DNA of 64,000 nt from a virus, in IMG/VR virus record IMGVR_UViG_2784132095_000001, one strand, 5' to 3'. Made by a program: the position numbers and the translations under genes. Below, piece after piece: positions 29,102 to 64,000 of the stretch. The notes under the pieces were generated by a model. The model made no database searches. It saw nothing but the letters and a program-made list of their open reading frames with translations, and was not told the origin of the DNA. The first letter of the stretch is position 1. Each line of letters opens with the position of its first letter.

Positions 29102-29113
29102 AGTGAGGTTGAC

Positions 29114-30092: not shown

Positions 30093-30103
30093 CGGAGGCA
30101 TCA

Positions 30104-31828: not shown

Positions 31829-32541
31829 AAAATCTTTTCATCCTCATAGCGCTTCTCTCGATCGGCTGCATCGCGCGGGCCGACATGCTTTTGCTCGGGG
31901 CCGGGAGTCTTCCGGCGGCGGGCGGCGGCGCATCTTACGTGGCCGTGTACAGCAACACAGGTACGGGCACCTCAATTACAGTATCGAGCGTTAACGCCGG
32001 CGCTGGCGATCTTATCCTCGTATTGGCCGGATGGCGCAATAACGGCGGGCAGACGATATCGTCAGTCACGTATAACGGGGCTGGAATCACGCATATTAGG
32101 ACTGAGGCCCCTGGCGCTGGATTCGTTGCCGCAACCTCCTACTATGCAATCAATCCTGGGGGTACGGCGGACGTGGTGGTGACATGGAGCGCTGCAATCG
32201 ATGGCGGCGGTCACGTCGTTGTGTATGTGATTTCTGGCGCACACCAAACGACCCCTATTCAAGATCATCAATCCACTTCCGACACAACGGCTAGTGCAAC
32301 ATCCATATCTACAAATGTGACCTCGCAATCAGGCGGTTTGGTTTTCGATCTGGTAAATCGACAGTCAGTTACTGAGGCTCTTACTGTAGGCGCAGATCAA
32401 ACGGAACGATATCAGGGGTCCGTTGGGGATGTGAGGGATGGCTCCAGCACAGAACCCGGCGCGGCAACGACCACAATGTCATGGTCCTGGACAGGCGGGT
32501 CGCGGGTATCTCATATCGCGATAGCGGTGGCACCACAATGA
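31825..32541 (+). CDS. Exported beta-rich protein
   Basis: Signal/lipoprotein-like N-terminus MKNLFILIALLSIGC; S/T/G-rich beta-sandwich composition. Confidence 0.75.
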   Translation: MKNLFILIALLSIGCIARADMLLLGAGSLPAAGGGASYVAVYSNTGTGTSITVSSVNAGAGDLILVLAGWRNNGGQTISSVTYNGAGITHIRTEAPGAGFVAATSYYAINPGGTADVVVTWSAAIDGGGHVVVYVISGAHQTTPIQDHQSTSDTTASATSISTNVTSQSGGLVFDLVNRQSVTEALTVGADQTERYQGSVGDVRDGSSTEPGAATTTMSWSWTGGSRVSHIAIAVAPQ

Positions 32542-33695
32542 TTGTTTTTCTTTTAATGGCGATCTTGCTGTTCGCTCAGAGCGTGATGGCACAGCCGTCC
32601 ATCTCATCTACTTCTGGAGGCTGGTCGCACGGTGCTAGCGTTACGATTTCGGGGAGCGGCTTTGGGACAAAGGCCACGGCGCCGCCGCTACTCTACGATG
32701 ATTTCGAGAGCGGCACTAATGGCTCGAATATAAAACCAAATAACCCTGTAGTGGGTACAGCGTGGGATGATTTTGTCGGCGGTGGCACTCAAGTTCCAAG
32801 ATATTCAAACACGATCTCTCGCGGCGTTTCAGTGCTATCGAGTCTTCATGATTTTGAAACAGATGGGACATACAATTCATCGCTGGAATATTTCAATTCA
32901 ACAGCTACCACAGTGTACTTCACCTTTTGGTGGAGGCACGAGAAAACCTCAGTGAATTGGAGACGGCAAAACAAGCCTTGGATTCAGTACGGTTCCAACG
33001 GTACATACCCTGAAATGTATACAGGGTTTGGAAGCCCTTCTGATACTGATGGTGGGATTAGAAACAGTATCCAAGATGATCCCGCTCCTGGAAATGCAAC
33101 ACTTTACGGCTCGACAAACATTTCCGACATAGATGGGACTTGGGTTAGGCTGGAGGTGTATTTGGTCCAAAGCGATGTCGATGTTGCAAATGGCACGTTT
33201 TGTTACTGGACCTACAGGTCTTATTTAGGCACACCATCATTTGTAGAAGAAGCCTGCTCCACAACTCAGAAAATGCGAACACAGGATCGTACATGGAATC
33301 AATGGCATTTTGGCTCCTACTTTACGAACGACGACCCTGCGGGAGCGAAGGGGCGAGTGTATGTTGATGACATATATTTTGATAATACCCGTGCCAGAGT
33401 TGAAATTTGCAATGCTTCCACATGGGCTGCGCGGACGCATTGCGAGATTCAGCGTCCTACGGCCTGGTCCGACACAGAGGTGACTATCGTGACGAATCAG
33501 GGCGATCTCGGCGCGTTGGCTGGTGACTATCTCTATGTTTGCGATTCGGATAATTCATGTAACTCAAACGGATTTGCCTTGTCTGCTTCAGAGGAAGGAG
33601 GGAGCCGCTCAGTGATCACCTCTCCCCGCTCTGGTGTCTCACGAAGCGTAATCACGGCCCCAAGAAGCGGAGCAACTCGGAGCCCGATTCAATGA
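32538..33695 (+). CDS. Exported protein with lectin/polysaccharide-lyase-like beta domain
   Basis: Signal peptide; VTISGSGFG, YDDFESG, W/Y-rich core; C-terminal SRSVITxPRSG repeated twice. Confidence 0.7.
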   Translation: MIVFLLMAILLFAQSVMAQPSISSTSGGWSHGASVTISGSGFGTKATAPPLLYDDFESGTNGSNIKPNNPVVGTAWDDFVGGGTQVPRYSNTISRGVSVLSSLHDFETDGTYNSSLEYFNSTATTVYFTFWWRHEKTSVNWRRQNKPWIQYGSNGTYPEMYTGFGSPSDTDGGIRNSIQDDPAPGNATLYGSTNISDIDGTWVRLEVYLVQSDVDVANGTFCYWTYRSYLGTPSFVEEACSTTQKMRTQDRTWNQWHFGSYFTNDDPAGAKGRVYVDDIYFDNTRARVEICNASTWAARTHCEIQRPTAWSDTEVTIVTNQGDLGALAGDYLYVCDSDNSCNSNGFALSASEEGGSRSVITSPRSGVSRSVITAPRSGATRSPIQ

Positions 33696-45457: not shown

Positions 45458-46980
45458 AGAGAATCGCCGTCAAAAGGGTCGATACAGGCATTGTCTCGAA
45501 CAGTTCGGCGAGCAAGGTGGTCTGGTCGCGCGGGCGGAATGTGCGTTTCCGGCCTGGAAGCGTTTACAAAACACCTGGAAAAACCCTCCTTACGACCGTT
45601 CCTGCGGCCTTGTCGATCCGGGCGATGAAAACCTTCAAGGGCCATGACGGCGTGGTCAGAACGGTTGTAGCATGCGACAACAAGATATTTTCTTACACAG
45701 GCGGGTTCACAGAGCATGTAGAGATCACGCCGACGCCGGCGCCGACCGGAACGTCCTACGTGTGGCATTTCGAATTGATCGGGGGGATGTTGATCGTCTC
45801 GAACGGGTTTTCTCGCTGGAAGTGGCCGAATTATGCGGCGCCGTTGCAGGCTATGACCGGCGCGCCTGAGAAATTCGGAATGATGACCGTTTCGAACAAC
45901 CGGTTGATCGTCGGAAATATCACCGATGGGGGGAACGCTTATCCGGCTCGGGTGAAGTGGTCTCAGATCGGAAAGCCGGAAATCTTCACGATCGACAAAA
46001 CCGGGAAGGGAGGCCGTCATGACCTGCTCGATCCCAACGGGAAGTCGGACGCGATCGAGATCCCGAAGGCGGCGACCCATCGCGGAAAGCGGACCATCAT
46101 TTACACCGAGAGAAACATTTGGGCGCTGGATCCGGTTGAGTTCCCCCTGGACTACCGGCCTGAAATCATTGTTCCCGGCCTGGGGCTGCTGGCGCCGAAA
46201 GCGCTCGTATCCTGGAAGGGGATCGATTACATCATGGGCCCGGACGATTTTTACATGATGGGATCGGGTGCGCCGGTTCCGTTCGGCTTCGATATTCGGC
46301 CGCTTTGCTTTAACAACTTGAACAAAGAAGTTGGTGTGATCAATACGGCGTTCGGGTTCGTGCTTCCTGAAACCCAGGAGATCGGCTTTGCCGTGCCGTC
46401 GAAGAATGCCACTGAGCCGGATACGATTTATCTCTACCACCTCGAATTGAAAAAATGGACACCGTTGAGCTGCAACTTTCTCTGCGTGAATGACTCCCGG
46501 CAAGATCCGAATTACGGTGGCGCGTTCGGCGGCGGCGGATTTGGAGAGGGGGCGTTTGGTGGGGCCAATGACGTCAATCTTCTTCCCTACACCGTGGTCG
46601 GGAATATCCACGGCCAGATCCTCAAATTCGATGAGGGTTTCAACGACAACGGGGAGCCGATTACCGGCTATATCGAGTCGGGCGACATGGAAGGGGATTC
46701 CGCGTTTGTCTCAAAGGTCACTCATTCCGTAGCCGTTTATTTGAAAGAGCAAAGCGGAACGACTGAGCCGTTGATGATTCAGATCGGGGTAAGGGATTCG
46801 CTTTCGAAGCCTCTGAAATGGTCGATTCCGAAACCGTTTGCGGCCGGCATCGATGAACAGGCGGATATCACCGCGCGCGGAAAGTGGATGCGGATTCGGT
46901 TTTACAGTGATCAAATGGATAGTCCATGGGAGCTTGAAGGGTACGAGCTTTTATATTCAAATGAGGAGGAGATCCGATGA
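45454..46980 (+). CDS. Tail nozzle/tube protein (podovirus, beta-propeller-like)
   Basis: 508 aa; RNVRF...RVKWSQIG...ITARGKWMRIRF; typical position. Confidence 0.7.
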   Translation: MKRIAVKRVDTGIVSNSSASKVVWSRGRNVRFRPGSVYKTPGKTLLTTVPAALSIRAMKTFKGHDGVVRTVVACDNKIFSYTGGFTEHVEITPTPAPTGTSYVWHFELIGGMLIVSNGFSRWKWPNYAAPLQAMTGAPEKFGMMTVSNNRLIVGNITDGGNAYPARVKWSQIGKPEIFTIDKTGKGGRHDLLDPNGKSDAIEIPKAATHRGKRTIIYTERNIWALDPVEFPLDYRPEIIVPGLGLLAPKALVSWKGIDYIMGPDDFYMMGSGAPVPFGFDIRPLCFNNLNKEVGVINTAFGFVLPETQEIGFAVPSKNATEPDTIYLYHLELKKWTPLSCNFLCVNDSRQDPNYGGAFGGGGFGEGAFGGANDVNLLPYTVVGNIHGQILKFDEGFNDNGEPITGYIESGDMEGDSAFVSKVTHSVAVYLKEQSGTTEPLMIQIGVRDSLSKPLKWSIPKPFAAGIDEQADITARGKWMRIRFYSDQMDSPWELEGYELLYSNEEEIR

Positions 46981-48305
46981 GACGATTAAAAACTTTAACT
47001 CTGATTGGTCTTCTGCTGGTTGCCTCCACGGTGGGCGCGGCGGTCTTTCCGACCCCCTGCAGTGCGACGAATCCGACGAACTGTAGCCGGGGAACGTGGG
47101 GGCAGGAGCTTCGGGATTTCTTCGATGACACGTTTGATCTTCTGACTGGAAAGCTGGTCACCCCTTATACCGACACGGTGAACGTGGAGAAGTATGCTTC
47201 GCTTGCGGCGGCGGTGACCGACATTGGATCGGCGACAAAGACATTGCTTATTCCGTCGAATCAGGCTTGTTCGACGGCGATTACCTTTCCATCTACGTTG
47301 ACAGTGGAGGTTACTGGGTCCGGCAAGATCACGAAATCTACCGGTTGTACGCTCACCTTCAACGCCCCGTTCGAGGCCCCGCTTAAGCAGGTGTTTTCCG
47401 GGTTTTCGGCTGGAGATGTGACGTTTGGAAGCGGGAGACAAGAACTTGTTTTTGCAAACTGGTTCGGGGCTTCATCGGCAGAGACAGCAGGAAACAATGC
47501 GACTTACGTTAATACGGCGGTTTCAGCCGCAGGCGCAAATGCGCTTGTCGTCGTTCCGAGAGGAGTGAATTATACGACGACAGATGTTACGGCGACCGGA
47601 AAAATCTTAGACCTTCATAACTCGCCCTATGGGTTCTATGTCATCGGTACGCAATCACGGTACTTCAATATCGATTTTAAGAGTTCGGGCGCGACCCGTC
47701 CAGGCGTACTGAGGTTTGAGAACATAGACGCCGCGGCGCTGGATGTTGGGAGCGTGGTGACTCACTATGCTTCTGGCGCGCAGCAGGGATATTACGGATT
47801 TGCCTGGCAGGGCGCTGCAACGACAGACGCCCGGTTTGAAATGGCATTGGCCGGGTCTGGAGATTCCGTCGAAGTGCTTAGGATCGTTCCGAACCCGTTA
47901 GGGGTCGGTCATGCCTTTTTTCGCCTCGGTCCGGATTCCGCTCCGGCTCCTGGCGCAACGATGCACCTCATTGCCAATGGCGGTGATGAGGCGTCCGGCC
48001 TTCGCATTGAAAGGTCAAGCGCAGTTTCTAACCCGGCAAGGTATGGATGGACAATTGATTCTGACGGAAACCTTGAGCTTAACGAGACGGCTATCGGTCT
48101 CCGGTTAGAAATCGAGAAAACTACCGGGCGAGTAAAAATACAGAATAAGTTACACATTCCTGTGGTAGCAACCGGAAGCCTTCCGGCAGCCGGAGCGGCT
48201 GAGGATGGGTCTGTTTTGATTGAAGATGCCGGAGCGGGGGATCGAAACATAATCTTTTATGCGGGCGGCCAAAGGTTCAGGATTGATGGTGGATCACCCT
48301 TTTAA
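46977..48305 (+). CDS. Tailspike/fibre-like protein with N-terminal signal-like peptide
   Basis: MRRLKTLTLIGLLLVASTVGA; SLAAAVTDIGSATKTLLIP...APLKQVFSG...WFGA. Confidence 0.6.
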   Translation: MRRLKTLTLIGLLLVASTVGAAVFPTPCSATNPTNCSRGTWGQELRDFFDDTFDLLTGKLVTPYTDTVNVEKYASLAAAVTDIGSATKTLLIPSNQACSTAITFPSTLTVEVTGSGKITKSTGCTLTFNAPFEAPLKQVFSGFSAGDVTFGSGRQELVFANWFGASSAETAGNNATYVNTAVSAAGANALVVVPRGVNYTTTDVTATGKILDLHNSPYGFYVIGTQSRYFNIDFKSSGATRPGVLRFENIDAAALDVGSVVTHYASGAQQGYYGFAWQGAATTDARFEMALAGSGDSVEVLRIVPNPLGVGHAFFRLGPDSAPAPGATMHLIANGGDEASGLRIERSSAVSNPARYGWTIDSDGNLELNETAIGLRLEIEKTTGRVKIQNKLHIPVVATGSLPAAGAAEDGSVLIEDAGAGDRNIIFYAGGQRFRIDGGSPF

Positions 48306-48422: not shown

Positions 48423-48908
48423 ATGGAAAACCAGGTCGGTATGATCAGAATGGCGGAAGTTGTTCCGCCTGAATCTCCCCAGCTTCACATCGAGCTCGCG
48501 GTGACGTTCCCGAAGGATAAATTCGATGCGATTTGGAGTGAGATCAAGCCATTTGTCGAAGAGCTGGCGGCGGCGTCCGCCGGCGAGTACGACGCCTATT
48601 CCGTCGCTCATGCGCTTCTTTTCGGCACTGCCCACCTCTACGTTGGCCGGTTGACGAATCCCGCGCGGACCTTCGTCGGTTATCTGCTGATCCGGTATGA
48701 ACCGCAATCTTGTCACATCTGGCAGGCGTACATCGCTCCCGAGTTTAGGAAGACGAACGTTTTCCAGATGGGGGCCGATTACATCGAGCGAGAGTTTAAA
48801 AAGATGGGCGCCAAGCAGATTACCTTTTCCGCCACGCGGGAGTGGGGCGAAGTCATCGAGAAAATGGGCTTCACCCGCACCTACACGATTTGGAGGAAGT
48901 CGCTTTAA
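48423..48908 (+). CDS. GNAT-like protein at the head of the ejection-protein module
   Basis: CHIWQAYIAPEFRK...FKKMGAKQITFSATREWGEVIEKMGF. Confidence 0.65.
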   Translation: MENQVGMIRMAEVVPPESPQLHIELAVTFPKDKFDAIWSEIKPFVEELAAASAGEYDAYSVAHALLFGTAHLYVGRLTNPARTFVGYLLIRYEPQSCHIWQAYIAPEFRKTNVFQMGADYIEREFKKMGAKQITFSATREWGEVIEKMGFTRTYTIWRKSL

Positions 48909-49843
48909 TGGGATCTTCCGGGTCCGGATCTTCACAGCAGGTGACGAATCTATTTGTTGGGTTTGAGCCGGAGGTTTCAGAATACCTCAAGGCCATGCGC
49001 GATTTGGTCAATTATTCGACAACGACGACAAAGCCGCAGTTTCGCCCTCCCCTGTTTACCATCCCGGCACAGACCTACGCGCTTCAAGACGCGAACGAGC
49101 TGGAAGGCATCTCCCGGCTGGCAACACGATCCAGAGATGGAAGCCCGATCATCTCTGCCGGCGAAACCGTGCTTCGAAACACATTCGACGGTCTGAACCT
49201 TACCAATAATCCGAAGCTGGATGCGCTTTGGACGCGGCGAAAAGAAGAAGTGATTCAGGAGTGGGAGGAAGAGATCCTTCCCAGGATTCATTCGATTGCC
49301 AATCTCAACGGCGGGTTCGGTTCTTCCGGTCATCATGTGATGCAGGCGAAAGAAGCCGAGAAGGTCATGAAGCGGCTGGTTCAAATCGCCTACGAGATTT
49401 ACGGTCAGAATTATTTCGCGGAGCGGGCGATTCAGCAGGCGGCGCTCGGGCTCGGAATCGAGTACGGCACCCAGGATATTAAAGACGCGGAGATGCTTCG
49501 TCAGGTGGGACTCTACAAGCGGGAGTATTCCCAGGGAGCGAGGGAGGACGCCTACAAGCGATCGATGGCCGAAATTGACATGGAGATCACCCGGCTGGAA
49601 GTGCTGGGTAACGCTATTCGGACCGTGATGGGGTCATACGTCACCCGGACGGAGCAACTTTTCTATCCGAGTAAGTTTGGGGAGATTGCCGGAATCGCTC
49701 TGGCCGGAATGAGCTTGGCTGGATCGATCTACGGAAACGGCGGGTTCGGAAGTCCTTCGACGGGTCAAGCCGGAAGCCCGTCAAGTGGGCCGACGCCCTC
49801 TTATTCTCCCGGGTCGGCCGTTCCAAGCTACCAGGTGGGGTAA
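48908..49843 (+). CDS. Putative ejection (internal virion) protein, paralog A
   Basis: MGSSGSGSS N-terminus; helical; Gly-rich TM-like C-terminus. Confidence 0.7.
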   Translation: MGSSGSGSSQQVTNLFVGFEPEVSEYLKAMRDLVNYSTTTTKPQFRPPLFTIPAQTYALQDANELEGISRLATRSRDGSPIISAGETVLRNTFDGLNLTNNPKLDALWTRRKEEVIQEWEEEILPRIHSIANLNGGFGSSGHHVMQAKEAEKVMKRLVQIAYEIYGQNYFAERAIQQAALGLGIEYGTQDIKDAEMLRQVGLYKREYSQGAREDAYKRSMAEIDMEITRLEVLGNAIRTVMGSYVTRTEQLFYPSKFGEIAGIALAGMSLAGSIYGNGGFGSPSTGQAGSPSSGPTPSYSPGSAVPSYQVG

Positions 49844-49846
49844 ATC

Positions 49847-50752
49847 ATGGGTGGATCAAAGGGACAAAGCACGGTCACTGTCGAGAAATGGCCTGCATTT
49901 CTTGAAGATACGGCAAACCCTTATTCCGTTCCCGGAATTTTGAATTTATACCTCGATGCTTCAAGAGAGGTCAGCGATTACTATGAGAGCGTTTTTCTTG
50001 GCGGTGTTTCTGTCTTTACGAACTTCGCCAAGATCATCGTCGCTCAAGCGGTTGAAGAGGCCGAAGGGATTGCAAAGCTAAACACCCGCGGAAGAAACGG
50101 AAATACCACGGTCACAAAGGCAAAGGCGCTCGTCACCGATGTGATCGGTGGGGATTACCTGGATGGATCCAGATCCGAGTTTCAGGAAGTCCTTACCGAT
50201 ATCAATCAGAAGTCGGACGATGCCTTTGAAGACGATATTCGCTCGAAAGTGGGAGGCTCCCTTTATTTGATGGGAGATCCGGCGCCGGACAACCTGGCGG
50301 AAGAATTAACCTCCGGAACTTCTCAGAAATATCGGGACCGGCTGGTCGACCGCGCCTATGCCGACAATTATGGGGTTGAACGAAGGCATCAGCATGACAC
50401 GCTTTATCCTGGAAAGGATTACGCGATTCAAGACGTTTACGATGCGGAAGCCGTTCGCCGGGCCGGAATCTATCAGCGTGAATACGAGCAAACAAAGCTC
50501 GATGATGCTTACCGGGCGCAAATGGAGTACACCGCGAACAGAATCCGGGCTGAGGAGGTTTTTGGGAACGCGCTTCGTTCGATGGTGGGGGCGCAGCAGG
50601 CACATACCACACCATATTACAAGCCGAATCCGGCGGGGTCGATCCTCGGTGGTGCGTTGGTGGGGGCACAGGCCGGGTCTGTGCTGGGTCCGTGGGGAGC
50701 GGCCGGCGGTGCCGTGATCGGTGGAATCTTGGGATATGCGGGATCACAATAG
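49847..50752 (+). CDS. Putative ejection (internal virion) protein, paralog B
   Basis: MGGSKG N-terminus; Gly-zipper C-terminus GAAGGAVIGGILG. Confidence 0.7.
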   Translation: MGGSKGQSTVTVEKWPAFLEDTANPYSVPGILNLYLDASREVSDYYESVFLGGVSVFTNFAKIIVAQAVEEAEGIAKLNTRGRNGNTTVTKAKALVTDVIGGDYLDGSRSEFQEVLTDINQKSDDAFEDDIRSKVGGSLYLMGDPAPDNLAEELTSGTSQKYRDRLVDRAYADNYGVERRHQHDTLYPGKDYAIQDVYDAEAVRRAGIYQREYEQTKLDDAYRAQMEYTANRIRAEEVFGNALRSMVGAQQAHTTPYYKPNPAGSILGGALVGAQAGSVLGPWGAAGGAVIGGILGYAGSQ

Positions 50753-50760
50753 GAGACGGC

Positions 50761-52191
50761 ATGGCACACGATGATATCCGGAAAGGGAACGGCTTGAGGA
50801 TCAATTTCGGGGATCGTGTTTTATTCGAAGATCCTCCGTCAAAGCCGAATATAGCAGAGAGTATCTATCGGGACGAAGGAAGCCGCATCGAACCCGGCAA
50901 TCCGAATCGAAGTGCCGTCACCCCTGTTTCGAATGCGATTACTGGACCGATTTACGGTCCGAAGAACATCGCCGAGGAGCGGGTTTCCCCGCGTCCCGGA
51001 ATGACCTCGCCGCCACTTCCCGAGTGGCCAAATACCGCGGCGTCTGCCGTGTCTCCCCCCACATGGGAGCGCCGCGGTATTCCTACCATCCCTGCCGTTG
51101 ATTCGGATGTGTCGACGCCTGATGTGGTCGCTTCTCCCGGACAGCCGCAAGGGCTCAAGACGCCTGAAGGAATGGGCCCCCCTGCGCCGGAAAGCGCAAC
51201 CGCCAAATGGTTTAAGAACATGACGCCGGATCAGCGGACGGCGCTTCAACGGTCTCTTCTGGCGACCGGGCTTTCTTTGATGGCGTCTCAGCGACCCTCC
51301 CGGTATCCGGTTTCGACTGTCTCTCAGGTCGGAGAGGCGGGGCTGACGGGGCTTGCCGTTTACGATCGAACCATGGCGCAAGCTGGCGAAGCAGCGGATC
51401 GCCGGACGCAACTTGGATTGCGGGAGCGTCAGGTCGCTACAGAAGAAGCGCGGCTTCGCCTGGCGGTTGATGAGGCGATGAGGAAGGCCGAATTCGAAAG
51501 CCCTGGAACGCCTGGGACGGTCGGATACTCGGAGCGGCCGACGTCGCTTCAACTCAATACCGGAGGGGTTCAGGAGCGGCCGGTAGCGACCCGCGGCGAG
51601 GGGGCTGGACCTCGAGCGCTTGGGTTGAATCTCGGAGCGCCGGAGGCGTCTTCCGGGGCGACCCGGCCGGAGAGAGGGTTGGTGGTCACCCCGGGAAAAG
51701 AGCCCGGTCAGGGGTATCGTGCGCGGGAGGCCGATATCCGGTATCGAAACGCGGTGACCGACAAGCTGCTTTCCGAAACAGGCGGAGAGATCTTCAAGTT
51801 GACACTGGAAGAGAAGCGCCTTGGGATCGAGAAGGCGAAAGCAGAGATCGGTAAGCTTCGCGCGGAAGCGGCCAAAATGCCGAAGTCTCAACGCGATTAC
51901 CTCGAAGAGAAGGCGCAAGACGGATTTACGAAAGCCTATCTTGCGTACAAAAAGGAACATCCTGAGGACGAGGACGGCGCGATCGCGGCCGGATTCAGCG
52001 TTTACAACTCCCTCTTTCGCATGGGGATGGGTGATCAGTTCATTCCGGGGGAGGAAACTGGATTCTGGCCCTTTAAAGGCCGGGAGCCTGGTCAGTGGGT
52101 ATCTCCCCCGGCCGGCGCGAAGGATACCGGCCGCACCTCTGGCGGAAAGAAGGTTTATCAACTTCCTGACGGAAACTACTGGGTGCCCTGA
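50761..52191 (+). CDS. Putative ejection protein (Pro-rich, coiled coil)
   Basis: Stop overlaps the start of the giant ORF (TGATG). Confidence 0.7.
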
Positions 52192-55100
52192 TGCCGATCA
52201 TCCCCAAGGATCAAATCCAATTTGACGAAACGGATGCCTCAGCGTCGCCTCCTGGCGGCCAAATCTACAAGCCTGACCAAATCCGTTTCGATGATGAACC
52301 GGCCCAGGGAAAGGGGCTTTCCGTCGCCGGAGCGGGGCGTCCCGGCATCGGCCTGAAACCGGCCCACGAAACGCTTCCAGGGGCCGACGCAGAGACAATG
52401 CGGGATCAGCCAGCGACTTGGGGCGAGACGTTAAAAGCGATTCCGGAATTGACCTACCAGGCTGGAAAAGAGGCGGTTGGCGGGATTGCCCAAATGGTCG
52501 GCGAGGGCCGATCGACTCCCGATCCAATGGGCGGGATTGTGCTAAAGATCGCCGAGGAGTTAATGCCGGGCCTTAAAACCCCTCCCCCTCCTCGGGATGA
52601 AGCGATTTCCCAGTTCGGCGAGCGCCTGGGTGCGGAAGCAAGGGCGCGATCGGAAGAAATCACGCCGAAGAATCAGACCTTCTGGCAGAAAGCAACCACA
52701 CAGGCCGGTATTTCGCTTGGGAGCATGATTCCTGGGACTATCGCGTCGATCATTGCCGGAAACCCTGCGCCATTGGTGGGCTCCTTCGCTGCACAAGAGG
52801 CAGGGCAGAGTTACAGTGAGGCACGGTCCAAGGGACTCCCGGAGGGTCAAGCGGCTCTGTACGCTCAATTAAATGGTGTGATCGAAGCGGGGACCGAGTA
52901 TCTTCCGGCGAAAGTGCTTTTTAAATCAGGTACAGGCCCTTTTAAAAGATTGCTGAATCTCTACGCCGCGGAACTCCCCGGTGAGAACATCGCCACCTTA
53001 AGTCAATCCCTCAATGCCTACGTCAACGGATTGGATCCGAATCTAACCGGCGGGGAATTGATCGAGCGGATGAAGCTGACAACCGGGTCGACAATGATTT
53101 CCGCCGGTGTTCAAGGTGGGATCTCCACGGTTGGAAATCGGATGGCTGGACGAAGGGGCCTTCCGGTTGAGGCACCCAAAGCGACCCCTCCCCCAACCGG
53201 AAAACCGCCCGCGTCTCCGACCGAACCTCCAACCTTCACCCCGACGCACATCCTTCCGGACGGCACGGTGACCCAAAAGGTTGAAGAGGGGGTGGTGGTC
53301 GACCGCCAAGGAAACCTTTATTCCGAAGAGGACGCCACCCCGACGCCGGGACAACGAAGACCGCCGGATACCAGCTTCCGCGCGCGCGACCTGTCAGAAA
53401 TACCAGGTGAGACGCCGATCGGAAGGGGTTTGCCGGTTGAACCGGTTGCAGCTGCAAGCCCGGTTGAAGCGCCGACAGACGTCGACCTTCTGGTGCCGAC
53501 CGATCAGCCGATACCGCCTCCTGGGCGGGGCCTTTCCCTGGAGACGCCTGAGGCGCTGGCTCCCAGGGTCGAAGCCGATTTGACGACCGGGCAGGTGATC
53601 GAGCAGCCCGAAGCCGTCCGACCGACACCGGTTGAGACGCCGCAGGTTGTTCCGGACGCTCCGACCGGTCCTATCTCCCCTGAAATCGAGCGCCCCAGGC
53701 CACAGCAAACCATTCCCTCGATTCGTCAGGAGGTCGAAGTTCTTGATGAGGAAGCGGAGGACATTCCCCAGCCGAAGGAGATGGACGAAAAGAGCCCGCT
53801 CGGATTGAAGGGGACCGACAAGAATACCTCGCTCGCCGCCTTTGTTCGTGCTGCAGGTGGCATCAACGAAACGCAGATGGCGGGGGATGTGCGTCAACGC
53901 TTCTCGATCCGGGAAGGATTCAACCTGGTCAACCGAAAAACAGGCCTTCCCCTCGATCGGCTTCGGCAAATGGCGGCGCAACATGGGTTCGTTCCGGAAG
54001 ACTCCACCCCGGCCGACTTTCTTGAAGCGCTTCGTCGGGACGCCGACTCCCTTAAAGCGCTGGGGAAGGGATCCGTTTTCTCACGCTACTACTCGCCGGA
54101 CCTTCCTGGGTTTGACTCGCCGGAAGCCAAGGCGTTCGAGCGCCGGACCGATATCAAGAAAAGAAAGATTGTCAATCGAATGACGCCGGAGGAGATGAGA
54201 AAGGAACTCCTGACGAGCGCGAAGACTGGAATTCCGAATGATCGTGCCTACGAAGAGGCGATCGACAATACGACCGACAAGGGCCGTCCACATCGCCGCG
54301 ACGTTCAGGCTATGATCGACATGGACGGGCTGAAATGGGTCAACGATAATTTGGGCCATGAAGCCGGAGACGCTTTTCTTCGCGCGATCGGCGATGCGAT
54401 TAAAGAATCTGAAATCGAGGGATACCATTTAAGCGGGGATGAGTTTGCCGCGCAATTCGATCGGGAAGTGGACGCTTATGCGAAGATGGAAATATTGCGC
54501 GACGTTCTCAGAAATGGTATTGTAACCGTTGAGTATGCTGACGGGTCTTCTCGTCAGTTTAAAGGATTGGAGTTTTCCTATGGCGTCGGATCGGAAAGAA
54601 CCGCAGCAGACACCGCCCTCTACTCCGACAAAGCAAGGCGAAGGGAATCCGGGGAGCGGGCAAAAACGTCCACCGAACCGCCTCCTTCCCTGGTTGAAAT
54701 CACTCCCCCCGAATCCGGTGCGGATAACCGTGGAACTCCTGGGCCGCAAGACCGTGGTGGATCTGAAACCGAAACCGAAGACTTCCGATTAACTTCTCCC
54801 GAAGCACCCCCCGAAGAGCAACCTAAAGCGCCTACCGCCCAGCAGGGTGAAATGTTTCCTGGATCTGAGACGATGCAGACGGGCACCCGTCCGATCATCG
54901 CCGAAGAAACCGGGGAATTTTTCAAACCGCTTGAGCCGGAAATTGAACAGCCTTCCCTCCTCGATCAAAAACTCGAAGAAGCACGCGAACAGGTTGACAC
55001 CTCCCCCTCCGAAGCCCAAATTGAAGCCGGAAACTACCAAAAGGGACACCTCCGAATCAATGGTCTTGATATCTCAATAGAAAACCCGAAGGGTTCCACG

Positions 55101-58100
55101 CGGAACGTCGGCGGGAAATCCTTCAAGATGAACTTCGACTATGGGTATATCAAGGGAACGACCGGCGCCGACAAAGAGCATATCGACGTTTACCTCGGGC
55201 CCAACCTGGAATCGGAAAAGATCTTTGTCGTCAACCAGGTCGATCCCGATAAGAACAAATTTGATGAGCAAAAGGTCATGCTCGGATTCTCTTCCCCGGA
55301 AGAGGCCAAAACCGCCTACCTGAAACAGTACGACAATCCTGCCTTTTTCGGGTCAATGGTCGAAGTGAGTATGGAGGATTTCAAGGCGCGGATAAATGGC
55401 GGGGGGAAATTGATTGAACCGGCGGAGGTAATCAAGCTTCGAAAGCGGCTTTACGATGAGGGGGAGAAAAAGAAGCAGACGGGAAACCGGGAGCGGTTGA
55501 AAAACCTTCTCTCAGGCCGCGGTGGAATGATTGAAACCGATGCGGAGAGAAAAGCGCGGGAAGAAAAAAGCGCTTCCATTCAACAAGCGGAAGAGAGTAA
55601 GATAATTGCGTCGCCACAGGAGACAGCCGATGAGCCTGGATCAGTTCGGCCAACAAGCCAAAGCCCACTGGAAGGAACACCTTCCGAAGAAGTATCGTCA
55701 ACTCTCAGCAGCGGGGACGCTGGAGAAGGAACTTCTCGAAGCCCAAGAGAAGACGCACGACGAGATCAACCGTCTGATGACACAGGGGTTGACGTTCGAC
55801 GAGGCCTGGGAGCTGACGAGGGAGAAATATCTTCTCCTTCCACCGGAGAAGGGGTAGCCCGAAACCAATCCCACCAAGGGAAGCCCGCCGGGTACGACTA
55901 CATTATCCGTCCGGAGATCGACAACCTCGAAGAGGGCGGGCCCAAAGGTAAGTTCAAGCGAAACCTCGACGCGCTCAAACTCCTTAAAAACATCGAAGCG
56001 GAAGGACGTCTTGCCACCCCGGAAGAACAGGCCGTTCTTGTCAAATATGTCGGTTGGGGCGGGATGCCGGCCGCCTTCAACGAATGGGGCGACTGGTCGG
56101 ACGAGAACCGCCGTTTAAAAGAAGTCCTTACCGAGCAGGAATACGAGCAAGCGCGCGCAACCACACCGAACGCGCACTATACCTCTCCGGCAGTTATCGC
56201 GGGGATCTATAAGGCGCTGCAGCGTTTCGGATTCAATGGGGGGCGCGTCATTGAGCCGTCCATGGGGGTCGGTCACTTCTTCGGATTGATGCCGCAAGAG
56301 ATGGCGGCGCGATCGACCCGGACCGGCGTTGAAATCGACTCTCTCACTGGCCGGATTGCTCGCCAACTCTACCAGACCGCCGACATTCGCATTCAGGGTT
56401 TTGAAGACACGAAGCTTCCGAACAACTTTTTCGATGTCGCCGTGGGTAATGTTCCTTTCGGCGATTTTAAAGTAAACGACCTTCCTTATAACAAACATAA
56501 TCTCTTCATCCACGATTACTTTTTCGTGAAGTCACTCGACAAGGTTCGTCCGGGTGGTGTGCTCGCCTTTATCACCTCCTCCGGCAGCATGAACAGCGGC
56601 CGATCTGAGAAGATGCGCCGGTTGATGGCTGAACAAACAGAATTCATCGGCGCGATTCGTCTCCCCTCCTCGGCGTTCAAAAAGATCGCCAACACCGAAG
56701 TCACAACCGATGTGATCTTTCTTCGAAAGCTTCTTCCTGGGGAGAAGCCGACCGGACCCGCCTGGATTGAATCGAAGGACAGCGATTTCAAGGGAGAGGG
56801 CGGGGTACCTCTTAGAAACAACGAATACTTCATCGCTCATCCCGAGATGATGCTGGGGAAGGTGACTGACGACAAATTACATCCGGGCCGGATGGGGTTG
56901 GCGCCGGACGGCCGCGATTTAACGCAGGCCATTGAGGAGGCGGTTTCCCGTCTTCCTGAGAACGTTTTTAGGGATGCTCCAAAGAAGACCGTTCAGGAAA
57001 TTCTCGAAAGGCTTCCGGCTCCGGAGGATGTCAAACCCGGCGCGTTTACCCTCCAGGACGGAAAACTTTACATGGAGAAGGGCGGGCAGCTCGTCGCCCC
57101 CATGACGGCGACCGATCGGCCGATTGAGGGGGTGGCCGCCGAACGCGTTAAAGGGATGATCGCAATTCGGGATGCGGTTCGTGAAGTGATCCGCACTCAG
57201 ATGATGGAGTCTTCCGAAGAAAATATTCTTCGCACACGGAAGCAGTTAAATCAAACCTACGATCGATTCGTTAAAAAATACGGCTATATCAATTCACAGC
57301 CGAATAACGTGGTTTTCCGAAACGATCCGGATTACTACACCCTGGCCGCGCTCGAGAAGTGGGACAAAGAAGCGAAGACCGCGACCAAGGCGGACATATT
57401 CAGCAAGCGGACCATCGAAAGAAACCTCCGTGCCAGCCGGGTCGATACCTCAAAAGAGGCGATGCTCGCTTCTTTAAACGAGATGGGCCGGCTTGATTTT
57501 GACCGAATGCGGGAGTTGACCGGAAAGAGCGACGCCGATCTTCAATCCGAGTTAAAGGGATTGATCTTTCTCAATCCGGAAGGAAGTTGGGAGTCCGCCG
57601 ACGAGTACCTTTCCGGCAATGTGCGGGAGAAACTTAAGGCCGCGGAGGGGGCTGCTGCTGCAGATCCACGGTTTAAAGAAAATGTCGAAGCTCTCAAAGC
57701 GGTTCAGCCGGAAGAATTGACCGCCGGAAAGATCGATCTTCGCCTCGGTGCTTCCTGGGTGCCGCCGTCTGATGTGCGCGATTTTATAAAACACCTTCTT
57801 GGGATCGATACCAGGGTCGGCTATTCGGCGGGGATGGCAACGTGGTCGGCTAATTTTGTCCGCGGAAATCTTGACTCAACCGCCAACCAAACCCAATACG
57901 GTACCTCTCGCTATTCCGGACTTTCTCTGATTCAGGATACGCTCAATCTGAAAACCGCGCGAGTCTATGACACCTTCCGGGAACCGGGTGGCGGGGAGAG
58001 ATCCGTCCTTAACGAAAAAGAAACCCTAGCCGCACAGGAAAAACAGGAAGCGATCAAGCAAGCGTTTAAGAAGTGGGCGTTTGAGGATCAGGAACGGGCC

Positions 58101-61100
58101 GAACGGCTGGTGAAGATTTACAACGAGCGGTTTAATTCCATTCGGACTCGGCAGTATGACGGCAGCCATTTAACCCTTCCTGGCGCTTCTCCTATTATCC
58201 AGCTTCGCCCCCATCAGAAAGACGGAATCTGGAGAATCGTTCAATCCGGAAATACCCTCCTGGCGCACGTTGTTGGCGCTGGAAAGACCTTCACGATGAT
58301 CGGTGGGGCGATGGAGCTGCGCCGGCTGGGGATCGTTAAAAAGCCGGTTTTTGTCGTTCCGAACCATCTTGTCGGTGAGTGGGGAAATCAATTCCTTCGT
58401 CTCTATCCCGCCGCCAACATTTTGGTTACGACCAAAGCCGACTTCGAGAAGAAGAACCGTCAACGGCTGATGGGGAAGATCGCAACCGGTGATTGGGACG
58501 GGGTGATCGTCGCCCATAGCGCCTTTACGAAGCTTCCCGTCAGCGATGAAACAGTAATCGAATTCCTCGAACGGGAATTGACTGTATTGAGAGATTTCCT
58601 CGAAGAGGCAAAGCGAGAAGCCGGTAAGAGCGGAAACCAGATCGTCAAGGAGTTGGAGAAAGCGAAAAAGCGTCTTGAGGCAAAAATAGATGCGCGCCAT
58701 GACGCCATTAAAGCACGGGCCGATCGCGGGGTGAGTTTCGAAGAAACCGGGATCGACATGTTGTTGGTCGACGAAGCCGACCTTTTTAAAAATCTTTTCT
58801 TTCCCACCAAAATGACGCGCGTGGCCGGACTCGCTCGATCGGAGAGTGAACGCGCCTTTGATATGTATATTAAGACGCAGCTGATCAATAAACTCACAAA
58901 CGGCCGCGGGATCGTCTTCGCCACCGGAACACCGGTCAGTAACACCATGGCTGAGGTGTTCACAATGCAACGGTATCTGCAGCCTCAAACCCTGGAAGGG
59001 CAGGGGCTCTCTCATTTCGATGCCTGGGCGTCTCAATTCGGCGATACGGTCACCGCTTTGGAGCAATCCCCAACTGGCGCCACTTTCCGCATGAATACCC
59101 GGTTTGCCAAGTTTACCAACGTGCCCGAGCTCATGTCGATGTTCATGCAGACGATGGACCTGAAAAACCGGGAGATGCTGAACCTTCCGACCCCCAAGAT
59201 CAAGGGTGGGAAACCGGAGATGGTCATCGCCAAGGCGACGAACGAATTGAGGCGGTTTGTCGAAATTCTGGAAAAACGTGGACAGGCGATCAAGGAAAGG
59301 AAGGTTAAGCCGGAAGAAGACAACATGCTCAAGATTACGGGTGACGGCAGGAAGGCCTCGCTCGATATTCGCCTGGTTCAGCCGATGGCGCCGGAAGCAA
59401 AATCCGGAAAGGTCAACCTTGCAATTCGAAACGTGGTCGATATTTGGGAAAAGACGGCCAACGTGAGGGGAGCGCAATTGGTCTTCCTGGATCTCTCCAC
59501 CCCGAAAGGTCAAAAGGAGGCTGGCGATAAAGAAGCGCCGAAACCTCCCGCGTCGGAAGGGGTTGAAGAGGCTCCACTGAAAGACGAAGGAGAGGCGGAT
59601 CGGGCGGTAGAAACCGCTGAGGAAGCGTCGCTTCGCGGATCGGTCTACAACGATATAAAGCGAAAACTGATTCTGCAGGGAATCCCGGAGAATGAAATCG
59701 CCTTCATCCACGATGCCGATACAGACGCAAAGAAAGAGCAACTCTTCAAGAATGTGAATTCCGGCAAGGTCCGGATTCTGATGGGATCAACCGAGAAGAT
59801 GGGGGCCGGCACCAACGTTCAGGAGCGTCTTGTCGCTCTTCATCACCTGGATGCGCCGTGGCGACCGCGCGACCTTGAACAGAGAGAAGGCCGGATCATC
59901 CGGCAGGGGAATAAACTCTACGAGGCCGACCCCGAGAATTTTCAGATTCAAATCTTCCGCTATGCGACCGAAGCGCCTTCTTTCGACCTGTATATGTGGC
60001 AGCAACTTGAATCGAAAGCGAAGATGATCGCTCAGGTCATGAGTGGCCGCACCGACATTCGGGAAATCGAAGACATCGGGGATCAGTCGATTCGGTCGAT
60101 CGAGGAGATGAAAGCGGCGACCTCCGGAAATCCCCTTCTTAAAGAAAAGGTGGAAGCCGATTTTGAAATCCGAAAACTCTCTCTGCTGAAATCCCAGCAC
60201 GATGACGCGCAATTCCGGCTGCGCCGCCGGCTTTCTGAAATGGGAAGCGATATCCCCAGGGATAAGCGGAACCTTGAATTGCTCAAAGCGGATATCGCCC
60301 ATCGGGACAAAAACAAATCCGAAAAGTTCAAGATGGAGGTCGGCGGGAAGGTTTATACCGAACGAAAGGATGCCGGCGAGCAAATCGTCCGGATCGGCGC
60401 CGGGTTGCAGGCCGATAAGAAGTATGATCAGTGGCAACCGATCGGACGGTACAACGGGTTTAATCTAGAGGTTGGGGCCTATGCTCTTGATATTTCCATC
60501 CGGATGAGCCGGCCGGGCGGGATGTATCATTATGCCAACGTAACGGATACCTTTCAGGGGACCATTGCCAGCATTGACGCCACTCTCCGCGGAATGGAAG
60601 CAGCCCAGGAAAAGATCGAGCGCAGGATTGATAAAAACGAAAAAGACGTCGAGGAAGTTAAGAAAGAAATCGGAAAGCCCTTCGAGCAAGAGGATCGGCT
60701 TAACAATCTGGTTGCGCGATCGGCCGAAATCGAAAAGATTTTAAAAACTCCCGTTCCGGAAGCACCGAAGACCGATGAACCGCAAGCGCCGGCCGAAGAG
60801 GGGGAGGCAGAGTTTTCGGTTGCCCGCGGCGCTTTTCGCCTGACAAACGATCAATACCGGAAGATCGTCGCCGACCTTCAACGGATCATCGCTCCCGGAA
60901 GCCGGGTCGTTCTGAAAGGTCAAATCACGGCCAATGCCGAAGGAAACGAGAAAGCCCTTGCCTCCTGGGGGATGGGTGATACTACCGGCGATATCAGGCT
61001 GGCCGGCCTTCACCGGACCGTCCGGTTGGACAATGGTCAACTGGCCTCCCTGATTCAACTCTCCCTGCGCGACATGAACGAGGGTACCCCCTATCATGAA

Positions 61101-64000
61101 GCGTGGCACTCCGTCGAAAACCTTCTTCTCTCCGACAAAGAGATTGAGACCCTGCGCGCTGCCTTCCCCGAAAAAGATTGGGTAGCGTCGACCGAGCGCA
61201 CCGCGGACGCCTTCGCCGATTGGGTGGCGAAGAAGAAGATCGAAGCCCCGGGCCGGGTGCGGCTGCTCTTCCTGAAAATCCGGACCTTCTTCGAGAAGCT
61301 GAGAAACGCGCTCCGCGGCCGTGGGTTTAATTCTGTCGAAGTCCTCTTTGAAAAAGCCTTCGCTGGGGAGCTGCGGGATCGAACGACACGCGGCCAAGTT
61401 GGGGGAGAGAGTTTCTCTGTCAAAAAGTACAAAACCCCCGAAGAGGCGAAACAGGCGACCCTCGAAGCGCGGAAGGAGAAAGAGGAAAAGCGCAACCTCA
61501 AAATCAAGCTGCGCGCCGCGGAGAAAGCATCGAAAGAAGGCTTCCGCGCGGGTGTCTCGGAGGAGCGCGCCAAAGCCAATGCCAAAATCGCCGAGATGAA
61601 GCGGGACCGGACGGCCATTGTCAATCGCCTGAAAAACACCTTCGCTGAAAAGTTGGAGGAAATCGGCCGGGTCCAGGAGTTGAAAGACCTGAAAGCCGAC
61701 ATTCTTACCCGAAACGTCGAATCGATCAAGCAGGAAATCGCCGACTACGCCAAGAAGCACCTTCCGATGGAAGCCCGCGGGGCGATGCTCTCGAACGTGG
61801 CGAAGGCGAAAACTCACGCCGACCTGGTTCGCGCGTTCGCTCGGATCGATAAAATCGCCGAACAGGTGGAGAGAAAGGGGCTCATTGCCGAATTCAAAGA
61901 CGTTCTGCAGCGAATCTCGGAGAGCAACACGATCGCCGTTCCCTACCGGAATCGAATCCGGGATCTTCTCTCGAGCCTCGAATTTTCAGAGGGCCGATAC
62001 CGGCGCGCGAAAGCGCTGATGATCGACGGCGAAATGGATCCGGCCACCGAAGCGATGATGGAAGCGATGTCCGTTCTTGCGCGCCGGCCGCTCTCCGATT
62101 TATCGAATGATGAAATCCGGGCGATGCTGGAAGAAATCGTTCTGCTGGAAGAGCTGGGCCGGCAGGCCGAAATTACCAGAAAAGAGCTTTGGGAAGCCCG
62201 TAAAGAGGCGATTAAGGAAGCGGTGGTTTCCGGGACGGTCCCGATCGAGAAGCCCGAAGGAAAAGCCCTTGCCGCCGCCCAGCACATCGATTTGGCTGTC
62301 ACTCCGATGGATGCCCTCATTGACCGGTTGGACGGGGGAAAGGGGTCGTATGACGGCGCCAACATGACCTATTTCAAAAAGCCGATCGATTCCGCCTGGG
62401 GGAAATTCCTCGATGCGATCGACCCGATCAAAAAACAGGCCTGGGAGAAAGCGGGAAAGCTGCAGCTGACGAACGAGGATTTCGAGCGGATCGGGATCTA
62501 CGCCGCGGATCAACAGGAAGGGGGCCGGGAGAAGCTTTTAAACAACGGGTTAACCGAAGAGGAGATCGACGCGATTCAGCTCCGTCCTTCCGAAATGGAA
62601 TTCTACCAGTGGATGAGGAAGAAGCTCGATCTGCTGTGGCCGCGGATCGCAAAGATCATGGCCGACGTTTACGGAAAACCCTTTGGGAAGGTGAAGAACT
62701 ATTTCAGCTTCATGACCGATTGGGAAAAGCTGACCGAGATGGAGGTGGTTTCCCGGTTGATCGAAGCGCCGGAGTATGCCCCTCGGACGAAACACCCTGA
62801 AATGAGCTTTACAAAATCCAGGATCGGAGCCGGAAAGCAGAGGATCAAATTAAACGCCATGGAGATCTTCCTCCGCCATACCGAGAACGCCGAATACCTT
62901 CTCAATATGGGACCGACCGTGAAAATGCTCTACGAGGTCGCCAACTCCAAGGAGTACGGAGCGGCCGCCGGCGATCGGGGGCAATCGCTGATGGTTCAGT
63001 GGTTGGATCTGATTGCGCGGAAGGGAGGCATTCAGGGGGACCGGCAGATTGCCATTCTCGACATTCTTCGTCGCAACGTGGGGGTGGCGACCATGTCGTT
63101 TAAGGTCTCCTCGGCGCTGGTGCAGCCCTCCTCGATCGTCACCGGGGCGTCGATGATCGGCCGCTACGCCTTCACCGGCAGTATGGACGTGGCGACGTCG
63201 AAGCGGTGGCGTGAATTTCTCACAAAGAATTTCCCGGAGATTAGAGACAGAGAAGCCGACGATCCGGCCTTTATGGAGCTGTCCGACCGGAAATGGTTGG
63301 CCCGGATGACGAAGATCGGACTCGGACCCCTCAAAAAGCTGGACCTGTACGCCGCCTCTGCGATCACCGCCGGCGCCTACCGGAAATACCTCAATGAGCA
63401 CGGACAAACCCTGGATTTCGAGAAGCCGAACAAGGACGCCATTGCCTATGCCGAATTGATGCTGCGGCGCACCCAGGCCTCGATGTTCTTCAAGGATACC
63501 CCTCTGGCGATCTCCCGCGGCGCGCTGACGGGAAACCGATCACTCGATAAAGTGCTCTTCCAGTTTCAAAACTTCGCGCTGAATAACTGGAGCCTGATTC
63601 GCCATGATCTTTGGCGCGCCGGCATCCGGGAGCGTAATCCCGCCAAAGCGGTCCGAATCTTCACCTGGTTGACCCTGGCGACCCTCGCCGAGGTCGGACT
63701 TCGGGATCTGGCCGGGTTCCTGACGGGAATGGATGATGATGATCCAGTCGAAAAAGAAATGGTCCAAGAAGCATTGAACAAGGTTCCCTTCCTCTCTCAT
63801 TTGGTTTCAGCGATCGTGTATCAGGATGTGCCGATCCCGGTTGTTTCTACGTTGATGCGAATCCCGAAAGGGATTGGAAGAATGTTGTTCGGCAAAGAGC
63901 CGGAGACGAAGGCGCGCGGCCTCGTCACGGCGGTAGAAGGAGCGGGGCGGGTGGCCGGGATTCCTGGGGCTGCTCAGGTGGGGCAAACAGCAAGGGAAGC
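52191..64000 (+). CDS. Giant polyvalent virion-type protein, at least 3936 aa (3' end outside window; missing from ORF track)
   Basis: ATG at 52191. All domains translated by hand lie in this frame, and the track lists no stop-terminated ORF in it. Confidence 0.9.
54207..54638 (+). other. GGDEF (diguanylate cyclase-like) domain within the giant ORF
   Basis: TGIPNDRAY...[23 protein letters not shown]...YHLSGDEF (54432-54446)...FSYG...ADTALYSDK. Confidence 0.88.
54990..55395 (+). other. Inorganic-pyrophosphatase-like (InPase) domain within the giant ORF
   Basis: [15 protein letters not shown]...[11 protein letters not shown]...[21 protein letters not shown]...[10 protein letters not shown]. 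Confidence 0.85.
55630..55857 (+). CDS. Overprinted (+1 frame) 75-aa gene, TnpV-like helical protein
   Basis: SD AGGAG 7 nt before the [28 protein letters not shown]...[18 protein letters not shown]; the main frame here is a low-complexity linker. Confidence 0.7.
55920..56800 (+). other. N6-adenine methyltransferase domain (DarB-like)
   Basis: YVGWGG, NAHYTS, EPSMGVG (56253-56273), NVPF (56448-56459). Boundaries approximate. Confidence 0.9.
58200..60050 (+). other. SNF2/SWI2-type helicase domains (DarB-like)
   Basis: AHVVGAGKT (58263-58289), DEAD (58770-58781), [24 protein letters not shown] (59880-59912). Boundaries approximate. Confidence 0.92.
60850..61380 (+). other. Zincin-like metallopeptidase domain
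   Basis: HEAWH (61095-61109) with downstream ERTADAF. Boundaries approximate. Confidence 0.7.

Follow-up and report, generated by a model that had tools for sequence, protein, structure and literature searches.

Organization of the locus

The 64,000-nucleotide (nt) stretch of viral DNA analyzed here (IMG/VR record IMGVR_UViG_2784132095_000001; hereafter, the window) ends inside a single giant open reading frame (ORF), which runs on the forward strand from 52191 to 63998 without a stop codon and encodes 3,936 amino acids (aa) within the window. The ORF listing thus bears out the first-pass annotation, which had described one stopless frame of at least 3936 aa, and the whole-genome sequence now provides its exact length: the stop codon lies 13 nt beyond the end of the window, yielding a protein of 3,940 aa. 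The source genome comprises 5.17 Mb in 22 contigs and the window corresponds to C1:760607-824606, on the 1.94-Mb contig C1, where the giant gene is free of Ns. Residue numbers refer throughout to the giant protein, and nucleotide coordinates to the window unless they are marked with C1 or with an L-numbered record. A frame of this length is far beyond chance. Three relatives (P0003, P0004 and P0174) are colinear with the giant, and RNA-library contigs are 100% identical to it wherever they are placed. Hence, there is no sign of an assembly frameshift or artefact, and extension of the contig revealed neither an in-frame split nor an assembly error. An Rfam search of positions 52000-64000 gave no match.

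The presence of a GGDEF domain, an inorganic pyrophosphatase (InPase) domain, a methyltransferase (MTase), an SF2 helicase and an HExxH motif within one ORF places the giant among the polyvalent proteins (Table 1), and profile matches and motifs succeed one another along the ORF in the sequence first proposed for them. About 2,800 aa of this cargo lie between an N-terminal domain (N-domain) and a C-terminal module (C-module) of ~770 aa. We consider it likely that the giant serves a temperate, podovirus-type prophage as its largest ejection (internal-virion) protein, in which a conserved chassis carries inserted cargo.

Table 1. Features of the giant gene and of its prophage, with window coordinates
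Feature	Residues	Position	Strand	Basis
Giant ORF		52191..64000 in window, stop 64011-64013	+	ORF listing and genome extension
N-domain	~60-330	52368..53180	+	tblastn/BLASTP to ejection-slot giants
Pro/Glu/Thr-rich linker, 19% Pro	330-540	53178..53810	+	Composition
GGDEF domain	~658-830	54162..54680	+	Pfam PF00990, 39.9 bits
InPase domain (polyvalent-type pyrophosphatase)	938-1071	55002..55403	+	Pfam PF18823
DarB-like cassette	~1143-2870	55617..60800	+	PHROG 10089, motifs, Pfam
HExxH region	2880-3100	60828..61490	+	Motif and secondary-structure order
C-module, all-helical	~3175-3940	61713..64000	+	HMMER, AF2 model
Nested 75-codon ORF, TnpV-like, +1 frame		55630..55857	+	Shine-Dalgarno sequence AGGAG 7 nt before ATG
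Three late genes (333, 301, 499 aa)		48842..52191	+	L024 synteny; smaller-ejection-protein slot
Integrase		3-890	-	Left prophage edge

The DarB-like cassette

The PHROG 10089 profile ('DarB-like antirestriction') matches residues 1112-3209 of the giant with 1,928 bits (profile positions 1435-3507). In this region, LPD36, a gamma-class N6-adenine MTase and an SF2 helicase with intact ATPase motifs follow one another in DarB-type order. The LPD36 GxGU motif (YVGWGG, residue 1286) precedes the MTase, whose TP motif, motif I and motif IV (NVPF) are found at residues 1324, 1355 and 1419, respectively. The SF2/SNF2-like helicase presents its Walker A motif (GAGKT) at residue 2029, DEAD at 2194 and motif VI at 2564, and is followed by a helical tail. 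In Pfam, ResIII (25.4 bits) and Helicase_C (26.1 bits) both score over their cut-offs. Despite an Eco57I-type MTase match that falls just under the cut-off (23.6 bits, residues ~1405-1490), the identity of the MTase is clear from the PHROG profile and the sequence motifs. Over 1,840 aa the cassette is 40% identical to VvAW1 gp01, and identity rises to 65% in P0174.

Further cargo enzymes

The GGDEF match in Pfam spans residues 678-758 and lies well over its cut-off of 23.8 bits. The motif itself reads SGDEF, and the metal-binding D-x-D, the Asn of K..ND and the Asp of GH..GD are also kept; all of these residues align to solved diguanylate cyclases, where they serve GTP. The [S/G]GDEF motif is invariant in six relatives, and the RxxD I-site is absent from the domain. 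A GGDEF domain accompanies the N-domain also in P0004, P0168 and P0170, and three to four relatives have the GGDEF-InPase pair as well. The host genome contains 47 other GGDEF matches and ~24 PilZ matches, which amounts to an unusually large cyclic di-GMP (c-di-GMP) network; it also encodes an HsdR. The phage GGDEF is the most divergent copy in that genome, and its score, the lowest by far (43.6 bits vs 95-189 for the host copies), indicates that it is no recent capture from this host.

Next to it, the InPase match covers residues 941-1068 with 153 bits, and a solved phage portal has a C-terminal domain that matches as well (9b41_L, E 6e-23). A PDB sequence search with the giant matched only the GGDEF and InPase domains.

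At the far end of the cargo, an HEAWH motif (residues 2969-2973, nt 61095-61109) is followed 33 residues downstream by a conserved Glu, and both the motif and this Glu are invariant in the five relatives compared. The predicted order of elements in this region (helix, three strands, HExxH helix, Glu helix) fits the zincin-like metallopeptidase (MPTase) core, which has been described as an HExxH helix and a Glu-bearing helix on a three-stranded sheet (Iyer et al. 2017, PMC5512222). The region found no match in Pfam or the PDB, and scores in the Atlas feature search were all <0.9. It is probably a zincin-like peptidase placed where the cargo meets the chassis. A second HExxH site (HEWFH or HEWGH) occurs in P0003 (residue 2168), P0004 (residue 1475) and P0175 (residue 1327), relatives that carry another central cassette and keep HEAWH or HELWH next to the C-module.

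The terminal modules

Searches with tblastn and BLASTP reveal that the N-domain is common to gp18 of Vibrio phage 1.021.A, gp01 of Vibrio phage VvAW1 and Bbp10 of Bordetella phage BPP-1, each of which is the largest gene in its own ejection slot. The domain is also ~40% identical to P0168-P0172, and contains a single hydrophobic window (residues 172-190). At the opposite end of the protein, a coiled coil (residues 3100-3175) precedes the C-module, which likewise has one hydrophobic window (residues 3871-3889). An exhaustive HMMER search with the C-module retrieved 1,228 representatives, 598 of them at E<1e-30. In all of these the module is C-terminal, in proteins of 600-5,000 aa whose upstream part is varied; a sample of 23 of them carries LPD1, RadC, ART-PolyVal, MuF_C, Zeta toxin, methylases and nucleotidyltransferases as cargo.

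The C-module hidden Markov model (HMM) matches Bbp10 at E 3e-23 in two colinear stretches and, after one iteration, extends to Vibrio 1.021.A gp18 and to four metagenomic giants. Since the N-domain is also present in Bbp10, in Vibrio gp18 and in these four metagenomic giants, Bbp10 (2,052 aa) looks like a plain form of the same two-ended protein. Bbp10 has been listed as a homolog of IVP-D (internal virion protein D; T7 gp16) in the epsilon15 subgroup (Table 2 of Hardies et al. 2016, PMC4819975), and proteins homologous to IVP-D can harbour domains meant to reach the cytoplasm, as in the virion RNA polymerase (vRNAP) of N4 and the methylase-like H66 gp60 (PMC4819975).

The C-module has no match in Pfam or PHROG, and a tblastn search of residues 3100-3936 against 50,697 phage records gave none either. 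A pattern scan recovered only two GTDB genomes (an Omnitrophica and a Gammaproteobacteria metagenome-assembled genome) and seven IMG/VR contigs, and the pattern was not found in the genomes of 60 relatives. When Pfam was searched at E<=1 with nine sub-segments of the giant, nothing credible emerged for residues 1-340, 330-680, 1060-1330, 2600-3200 and 3150-3936; an AP2 match was dismissed (22 bits vs a cut-off of 33). The AF2 model of residues 3100-3940 is all-helical (predicted local distance difference test, pLDDT, 76), and a Foldseek search of the C-module model against the PDB returned nothing at E<=0.001. Alignments were obtained with PhiM1 8vb2_A (Foldseek E 0.012; VIA Z 6.3, rmsd 6.8, 214 aligned) and E1004 9vvp_L (VIA Z 5.1, rmsd 5.7, 204 aligned). 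The other VIA-align rows were mostly generic helical bundles on the coiled-coil part of the model and were set aside.

Exchange of cassettes among related giants

Comparison with related giants indicates that the ends and the middle of the protein have separate histories. P0003 and P0004 share with it residues 1-1165 (N-domain, linker, GGDEF and InPase) and 2870-3940 (HExxH and C-module), the latter part at 79-89% identity, and differ in the middle, which in them holds LPD1 and another methylase. P0174 shares residues 649-3085 (GGDEF, InPase, DarB unit and HExxH) at up to 65% identity and differs at both ends, where it has another N-terminus and an LPD38 C-terminus. VvAW1 gp01, in turn, shares the N-domain and the DarB unit only. 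At the level of sequence, this distribution shows a modular rule, by which ends (chassis) and middle (cargo) recombine independently. More generally, it suggests that the chassis formed by N-domain and C-module defines a large family of cargo carriers (1,228 clusters), almost entirely uncultured, which swap whole effector cassettes.

The state of the cargo speaks to the notion that its enzyme-like domains are decayed relics, and that the protein is only bulky internal scaffold or ejection material. The non-canonical motif IV of the MTase, the altered acidic motif of the InPase and a weak GGDEF signature in P0003 could be read in that way. Nevertheless, the GGDEF motif, MTase motif I, Walker A, DEAD, motif VI and HExxH are all intact and are kept in relatives at 40-65% identity, and the transfer of the cargo cassette, intact, between different chassis argues for selection on the cargo itself. 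We thus regard decay as very improbable, and favor an ejection protein that carries functional enzymes.

Prophage and late-gene neighbourhood

A 47-bp exact direct repeat (C1 760206-760252 and 825150-825196) bounds a prophage of ~65 kb. Its left copy is placed 355-401 nt to the left of the start of the window, and its right copy (attR; L001:12354-12400) forms the 3' portion of a tRNA-Lys(CTT) gene, 530 nt past the stop codon of the giant. Among the genes of the prophage are those for a helicase, a primase-polymerase/DnaB, a capsid protein, and a portal and an adaptor that are both SU10-type; the last three of these identify its virion module as short-tailed, that is, podovirus-type. From adaptor to giant, the late genes are in gene-for-gene synteny with L024, a 43-kb temperate phage contig in which the giant P0174 occupies the same slot, just before the integrase. 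The sole gene in this stretch that lacks an L024 counterpart encodes 442 aa (46977-48305, +); the slot is variable and perhaps has a role in host recognition.

The giant follows three late genes which occupy the slot of the smaller ejection proteins and which, by analogy, would share that role. Profile searches assigned no family to any of the three, and the 301-aa protein has a Gly-rich, weakly bacteriocin-IIc-like C-terminus. BLASTP comparison of the neighbouring late genes with the proteins of VvAW1, BPP-1 and Vibrio 1.021.A gave no matches. The position of the giant, on the other hand, is the same as that of the ejection-slot giants of VvAW1, BPP-1, Vibrio 1.021.A, L008, L012 and L024. Its ATG overlaps the stop codon of the preceding 499-codon gene as TGATG, which places both genes in the same late transcription and translation unit.

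The location at the end of the ejection module that the first-pass annotation gave to the giant holds in that this is the last large gene, and needs to be amended in that two small ORFs on the same strand lie between its stop and attR (L001:11840-12061 and ~12058-12290, corresponding to C1 824636-825086). The first encodes 73 aa with one hydrophobic helix, and the second a Cys-rich protein with a basic tail. A small gene directly after the giant is seen in relatives too (73 aa in L007, 89 aa in L024).

This neighbourhood bears on a different account of the giant, as a cytoplasmic, non-packaged defence or anti-defence enzyme: a methylase-helicase of DISARM, BREX or MADS flavour joined to a signalling cyclase, moron-like and acting in the lysogen or late in infection. 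A gene at the end of a prophage and beside attR is in a common location for accessory genes, partial NCBIfam matches to DrmD, PglX and MADS2 have been noted, and contigs of RNA libraries made from cultures of the organism fall on two islands inside the gene. The NCBIfam matches, however, are weak and far below their cut-offs, and span generic MTase or helicase cores only. Moreover, the giant is co-oriented with the preceding late structural gene and joined to it by the TGATG overlap, it stands where lytic podophages have their ejection-slot giants, both of its end modules are common with Bbp10, and a DarB-like giant is a virion protein in JC1. We therefore deem a cytoplasmic enzyme unlikely, and maintain that the gene encodes an ejection protein.

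A nested gene in the +1 frame

The 75-codon ORF that the first-pass annotation had singled out in the +1 frame of the giant gene is conserved in frame and start in L024 and VvAW1. Its counterparts are located at L024:13440-13664 and L004:13523-13747, and it matches Pfam TnpV at E 9e-5, below the cut-off. The ORF is full-length in L024 (79%) and VvAW1 (40%), where it has an ATG of its own preceded by a Shine-Dalgarno (SD) sequence, CAGGAG or GAGG. Where the two frames overlap, conservation is higher in the +1 frame than in that of the giant, both in L024 (79% vs 53%) and in VvAW1 (40% vs 25%). It is located exactly at the 5' edge of the mobile DarB cassette (residue ~1143). With tblastn, matches were found in 21 phage records, representing a dozen or so phages of Erwinia, Klebsiella, Pseudomonas, Agrobacterium, Sinorhizobium, Ochrobactrum, Microcystis and Vibrio; Burkholderia phages gave no match at E<=1e-3. 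The ORF occupies the +1 frame in the eight single-ORF giants checked, none of the 21 records lists it as a separate gene, and nearly all of the matches lie under a giant gene labelled 'DarB-like / methylase / PLxRFG'. The exception is Pseudomonas phage Itty13 (L029), where a 1,153-aa gene, probably a mis-call, has been annotated on the opposite strand over the match. In Sinorhizobium phage PBC5 (L028, record 26155-32697), the TnpV-like segment forms the in-frame C-terminal end of the upstream gene, and the giant is split there. A literature search found no paper on the nested gene within the library covered.

In three runs of a single study, contigs from RNA libraries have their left ends at 55617-55618, which is 12-13 nt ahead of the nested ATG, and extend to 56190-56296. 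In the whole giant gene they cover only 54542-54885, 55617-56296 and a short piece at 63292-63452; such contigs prove neither transcript start, strand nor RNA origin, and the uncovered parts are no evidence of silence. A scan for sigma-70 promoters called none at 55601, where a GATAAT can be discerned by eye only, without a -35 element. The island at 54542-54885, over the C-terminal part of the GGDEF domain and the linker that follows it, also consists of exact matches with the same left edges across runs, and no ORF, Rfam family or promoter was found to explain it.

These observations could be taken to mean that the long frame is not mainly one polypeptide. Internal starts of transcription and translation would then release, for example, a free DarB-like enzyme and the nested protein of 75 aa, and the part upstream would be an ejection protein in its own right whose frame just happens to be open. 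The reproducible start of the contigs at 55617, just before the nested SD and ATG (and their extension to 56296), the annotation of the PBC5 giant as two genes split exactly there and a report that the F116 homolog is broken into two genes (PMC4819975) all lend themselves to this explanation. Set against it, frame 0 is open across the overlap in eight of eight single-ORF giants in spite of identities of 25-53%, downstream of the nested ORF no SD-preceded start can be made out in frame 0, the JC1 gp69 peptides stem from one 4,515-aa product and, as noted above, the contigs are no proof of a transcript start. A split product thus appears improbable, and a single large ejection protein remains the preferred reading.

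We put forward, tentatively and as somewhat less than an even chance, a broader view of the giant as a dual-coding locus. The nested gene, which is conserved yet lacks annotation in at least nine giants of proteobacterial and cyanobacterial phages, would be a separately initiated partner of the DarB cassette, such as a regulator, an antidote or a factor for assembly or chaperoning. Its transcription in this prophage would begin internally, in cultures of lysogens as well, and the Bbp10-type chassis would be a second new element. If expressed, the nested gene would constitute a missing component of DarB-like anti-restriction modules.

A model for the giant as a carrier of enzymes

Taken together, homology and position point to the giant as a large ejection protein carrying a payload. 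The polyvalent, DarB-like character attributed to it in the first-pass annotation finds backing in the PHROG 10089 match, in its InPase and LPD36 features, in the late-operon slot, in the homology of its end modules to Bbp10 and in the virion precedent of JC1 gp69. By analogy with known systems, we infer that the giant is packaged, ejected and processed, and that each of its enzymes is active. A few copies would be packed in the capsid core and, at infection, be unfolded and ejected through the short tail along with the DNA, and the end modules, with one hydrophobic segment each, might help to build or cross a conduit through the envelope. Once in the cytoplasm, the DarB-like unit would translocate on the incoming DNA and methylate it or shield it against type I restriction. 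The cyclase may convert GTP into c-di-GMP, with the adjacent pyrophosphatase clearing the resulting pyrophosphate, and the c-di-GMP made by the cargo could perturb a host with a very large c-di-GMP network. The HExxH domain, for its part, may cut the cargo free.

Several points weigh against this model. Direct evidence of packaging is confined to relatives of the cargo (JC1 gp69 and P1 DarB) and extends to none of the C-module proteins, and a protein of 430 kDa must traverse a narrow tail channel, a passage that is plausible by analogy with N4 gp50. The iterated C-module profile (hmmsearch, hhalign) reaches T7 gp16 at E 0.04-0.08 and epsilon15 gp17 at E 0.1-0.6, neither of them significant, so the IVP-D label rests on Bbp10 and the literature. 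The fold matches of the C-module model to the PhiM1 and E1004 ejectosomes are weak and below a meaningful level for helical folds. No lytic transglycosylase was found among the neighbouring genes, in contrast to BPP-1 and L008. Within the cargo, motif IV of the MTase reads NVPF instead of NPPF (a variant shared by P0174), and the acidic motif of the InPase differs from that of the solved portal domain. Lastly, the model of the HExxH region is poor (pLDDT 53); of the peptidase proposed at first, the conserved motif and the secondary-structure order stand and would carry the assignment, whereas the fold lacks a counterpart in Pfam and the PDB.

Comparison with known systems

The closest parallels to the giant among studied phages lie in the ejection slot. 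Like the giant, BPP-1 Bbp10 is the largest gene closing a podovirus internal-virion gene run, after bbp12 and bbp11, and the two proteins correspond at both ends (the N-domain matches Bbp10 residues 178-332 with a BLAST E of 9e-12, and the C-module residues ~1255-2025). In the comparisons made, however, Bbp10 has no match to the GGDEF, InPase, DarB-like or HExxH cargo, and its neighbour bbp11 bears a transglycosylase, unlike the genes of this prophage. VvAW1 gp01 (3,640 aa, 'DarB-like antirestriction') is also a last gene, after genes annotated as 'DNA ejection', and shares with the giant the N-domain, the DarB-like cassette and the nested +1 ORF. In contrast, its C-terminal third is not matched by the C-module HMM, BLAST detects no GGDEF-InPase block in it and its motif IV is the canonical NPPF.

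The giants of Bcep22 (gp75), JC1 (gp69), PEp14, LASTA, Atu_ph08 and POI1126, podophages of the F116/Bcep22 group, comprise 4,400-4,990 aa and are annotated as 'DarB-like' or 'PLxRFG'. Like the giant, they are single ORFs that lie in the virion module and have a core of MTase and helicase (PHROG 10089); those of PEp14, LASTA, Atu_ph08 and POI1126 also contain the same nested +1 ORF. Their end modules differ, and tblastn searches with the N- or C-terminal parts of the giant match none of them. For JC1 gp69 (4,515 aa), mass spectrometry of CsCl-purified virions identified 51 unique peptides (PMC9144972).

P1 DarB (2,255 aa), likened here by description, is the archetype of the LPD36/N6-adenine MTase/SF2 helicase unit. 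Packed into the phage head, it acts in cis to guard the entering DNA against type I restriction (PMC5512222), and its incorporation needs DarA, Hdf, DdrA/B and Ulx (PMC9144972). Unlike the giant, DarB has no ejection-protein chassis, GGDEF, InPase or HExxH, and P1 is a myovirus. The likeness drawn to N4 gp50, the vRNAP, is one of design: an enzyme destined for the cytoplasm is embedded in a giant with an IVP-D-homologous C-terminal part (PMC4819975), which is preceded by a zincin-like HExxH domain needed for encapsidation (PMC5512222), but the cargo in this case is an RNA polymerase. A prophage protein of Acetonema longum (WP_004096050.1; Iyer et al. 2017), also compared by description, differs from the giant in having an extra ADP-ribosyltransferase (ART) domain and in its origin from a Firmicute prophage.

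The polyvalent class is known to include GGDEF, InPase and MPTase-mediated processing, with one example combining GGDEF, SNF2, MTase and MPTase (Iyer 2017, PMC5512222). The giant is thus another polyvalent/DarB-like giant virion protein, whose class, logic and combination of GGDEF, MTase, SNF2 and MPTase have already been published, and the accepted picture of polyvalent proteins is refined by it rather than changed. Less well known are the Bbp10-type chassis family with its cassette exchange, the recurrent GGDEF-InPase pair and the nested gene. With an intact prophage, att sites and a near-complete genome, the locus offers a clean, fully bounded case of enzymes apparently loaded onto the ejection protein of a short-tailed phage, and the conserved coupling of GGDEF to InPase in a host with ~50 GGDEF genes makes it a testable case of the delivery of a second-messenger synthase at entry.

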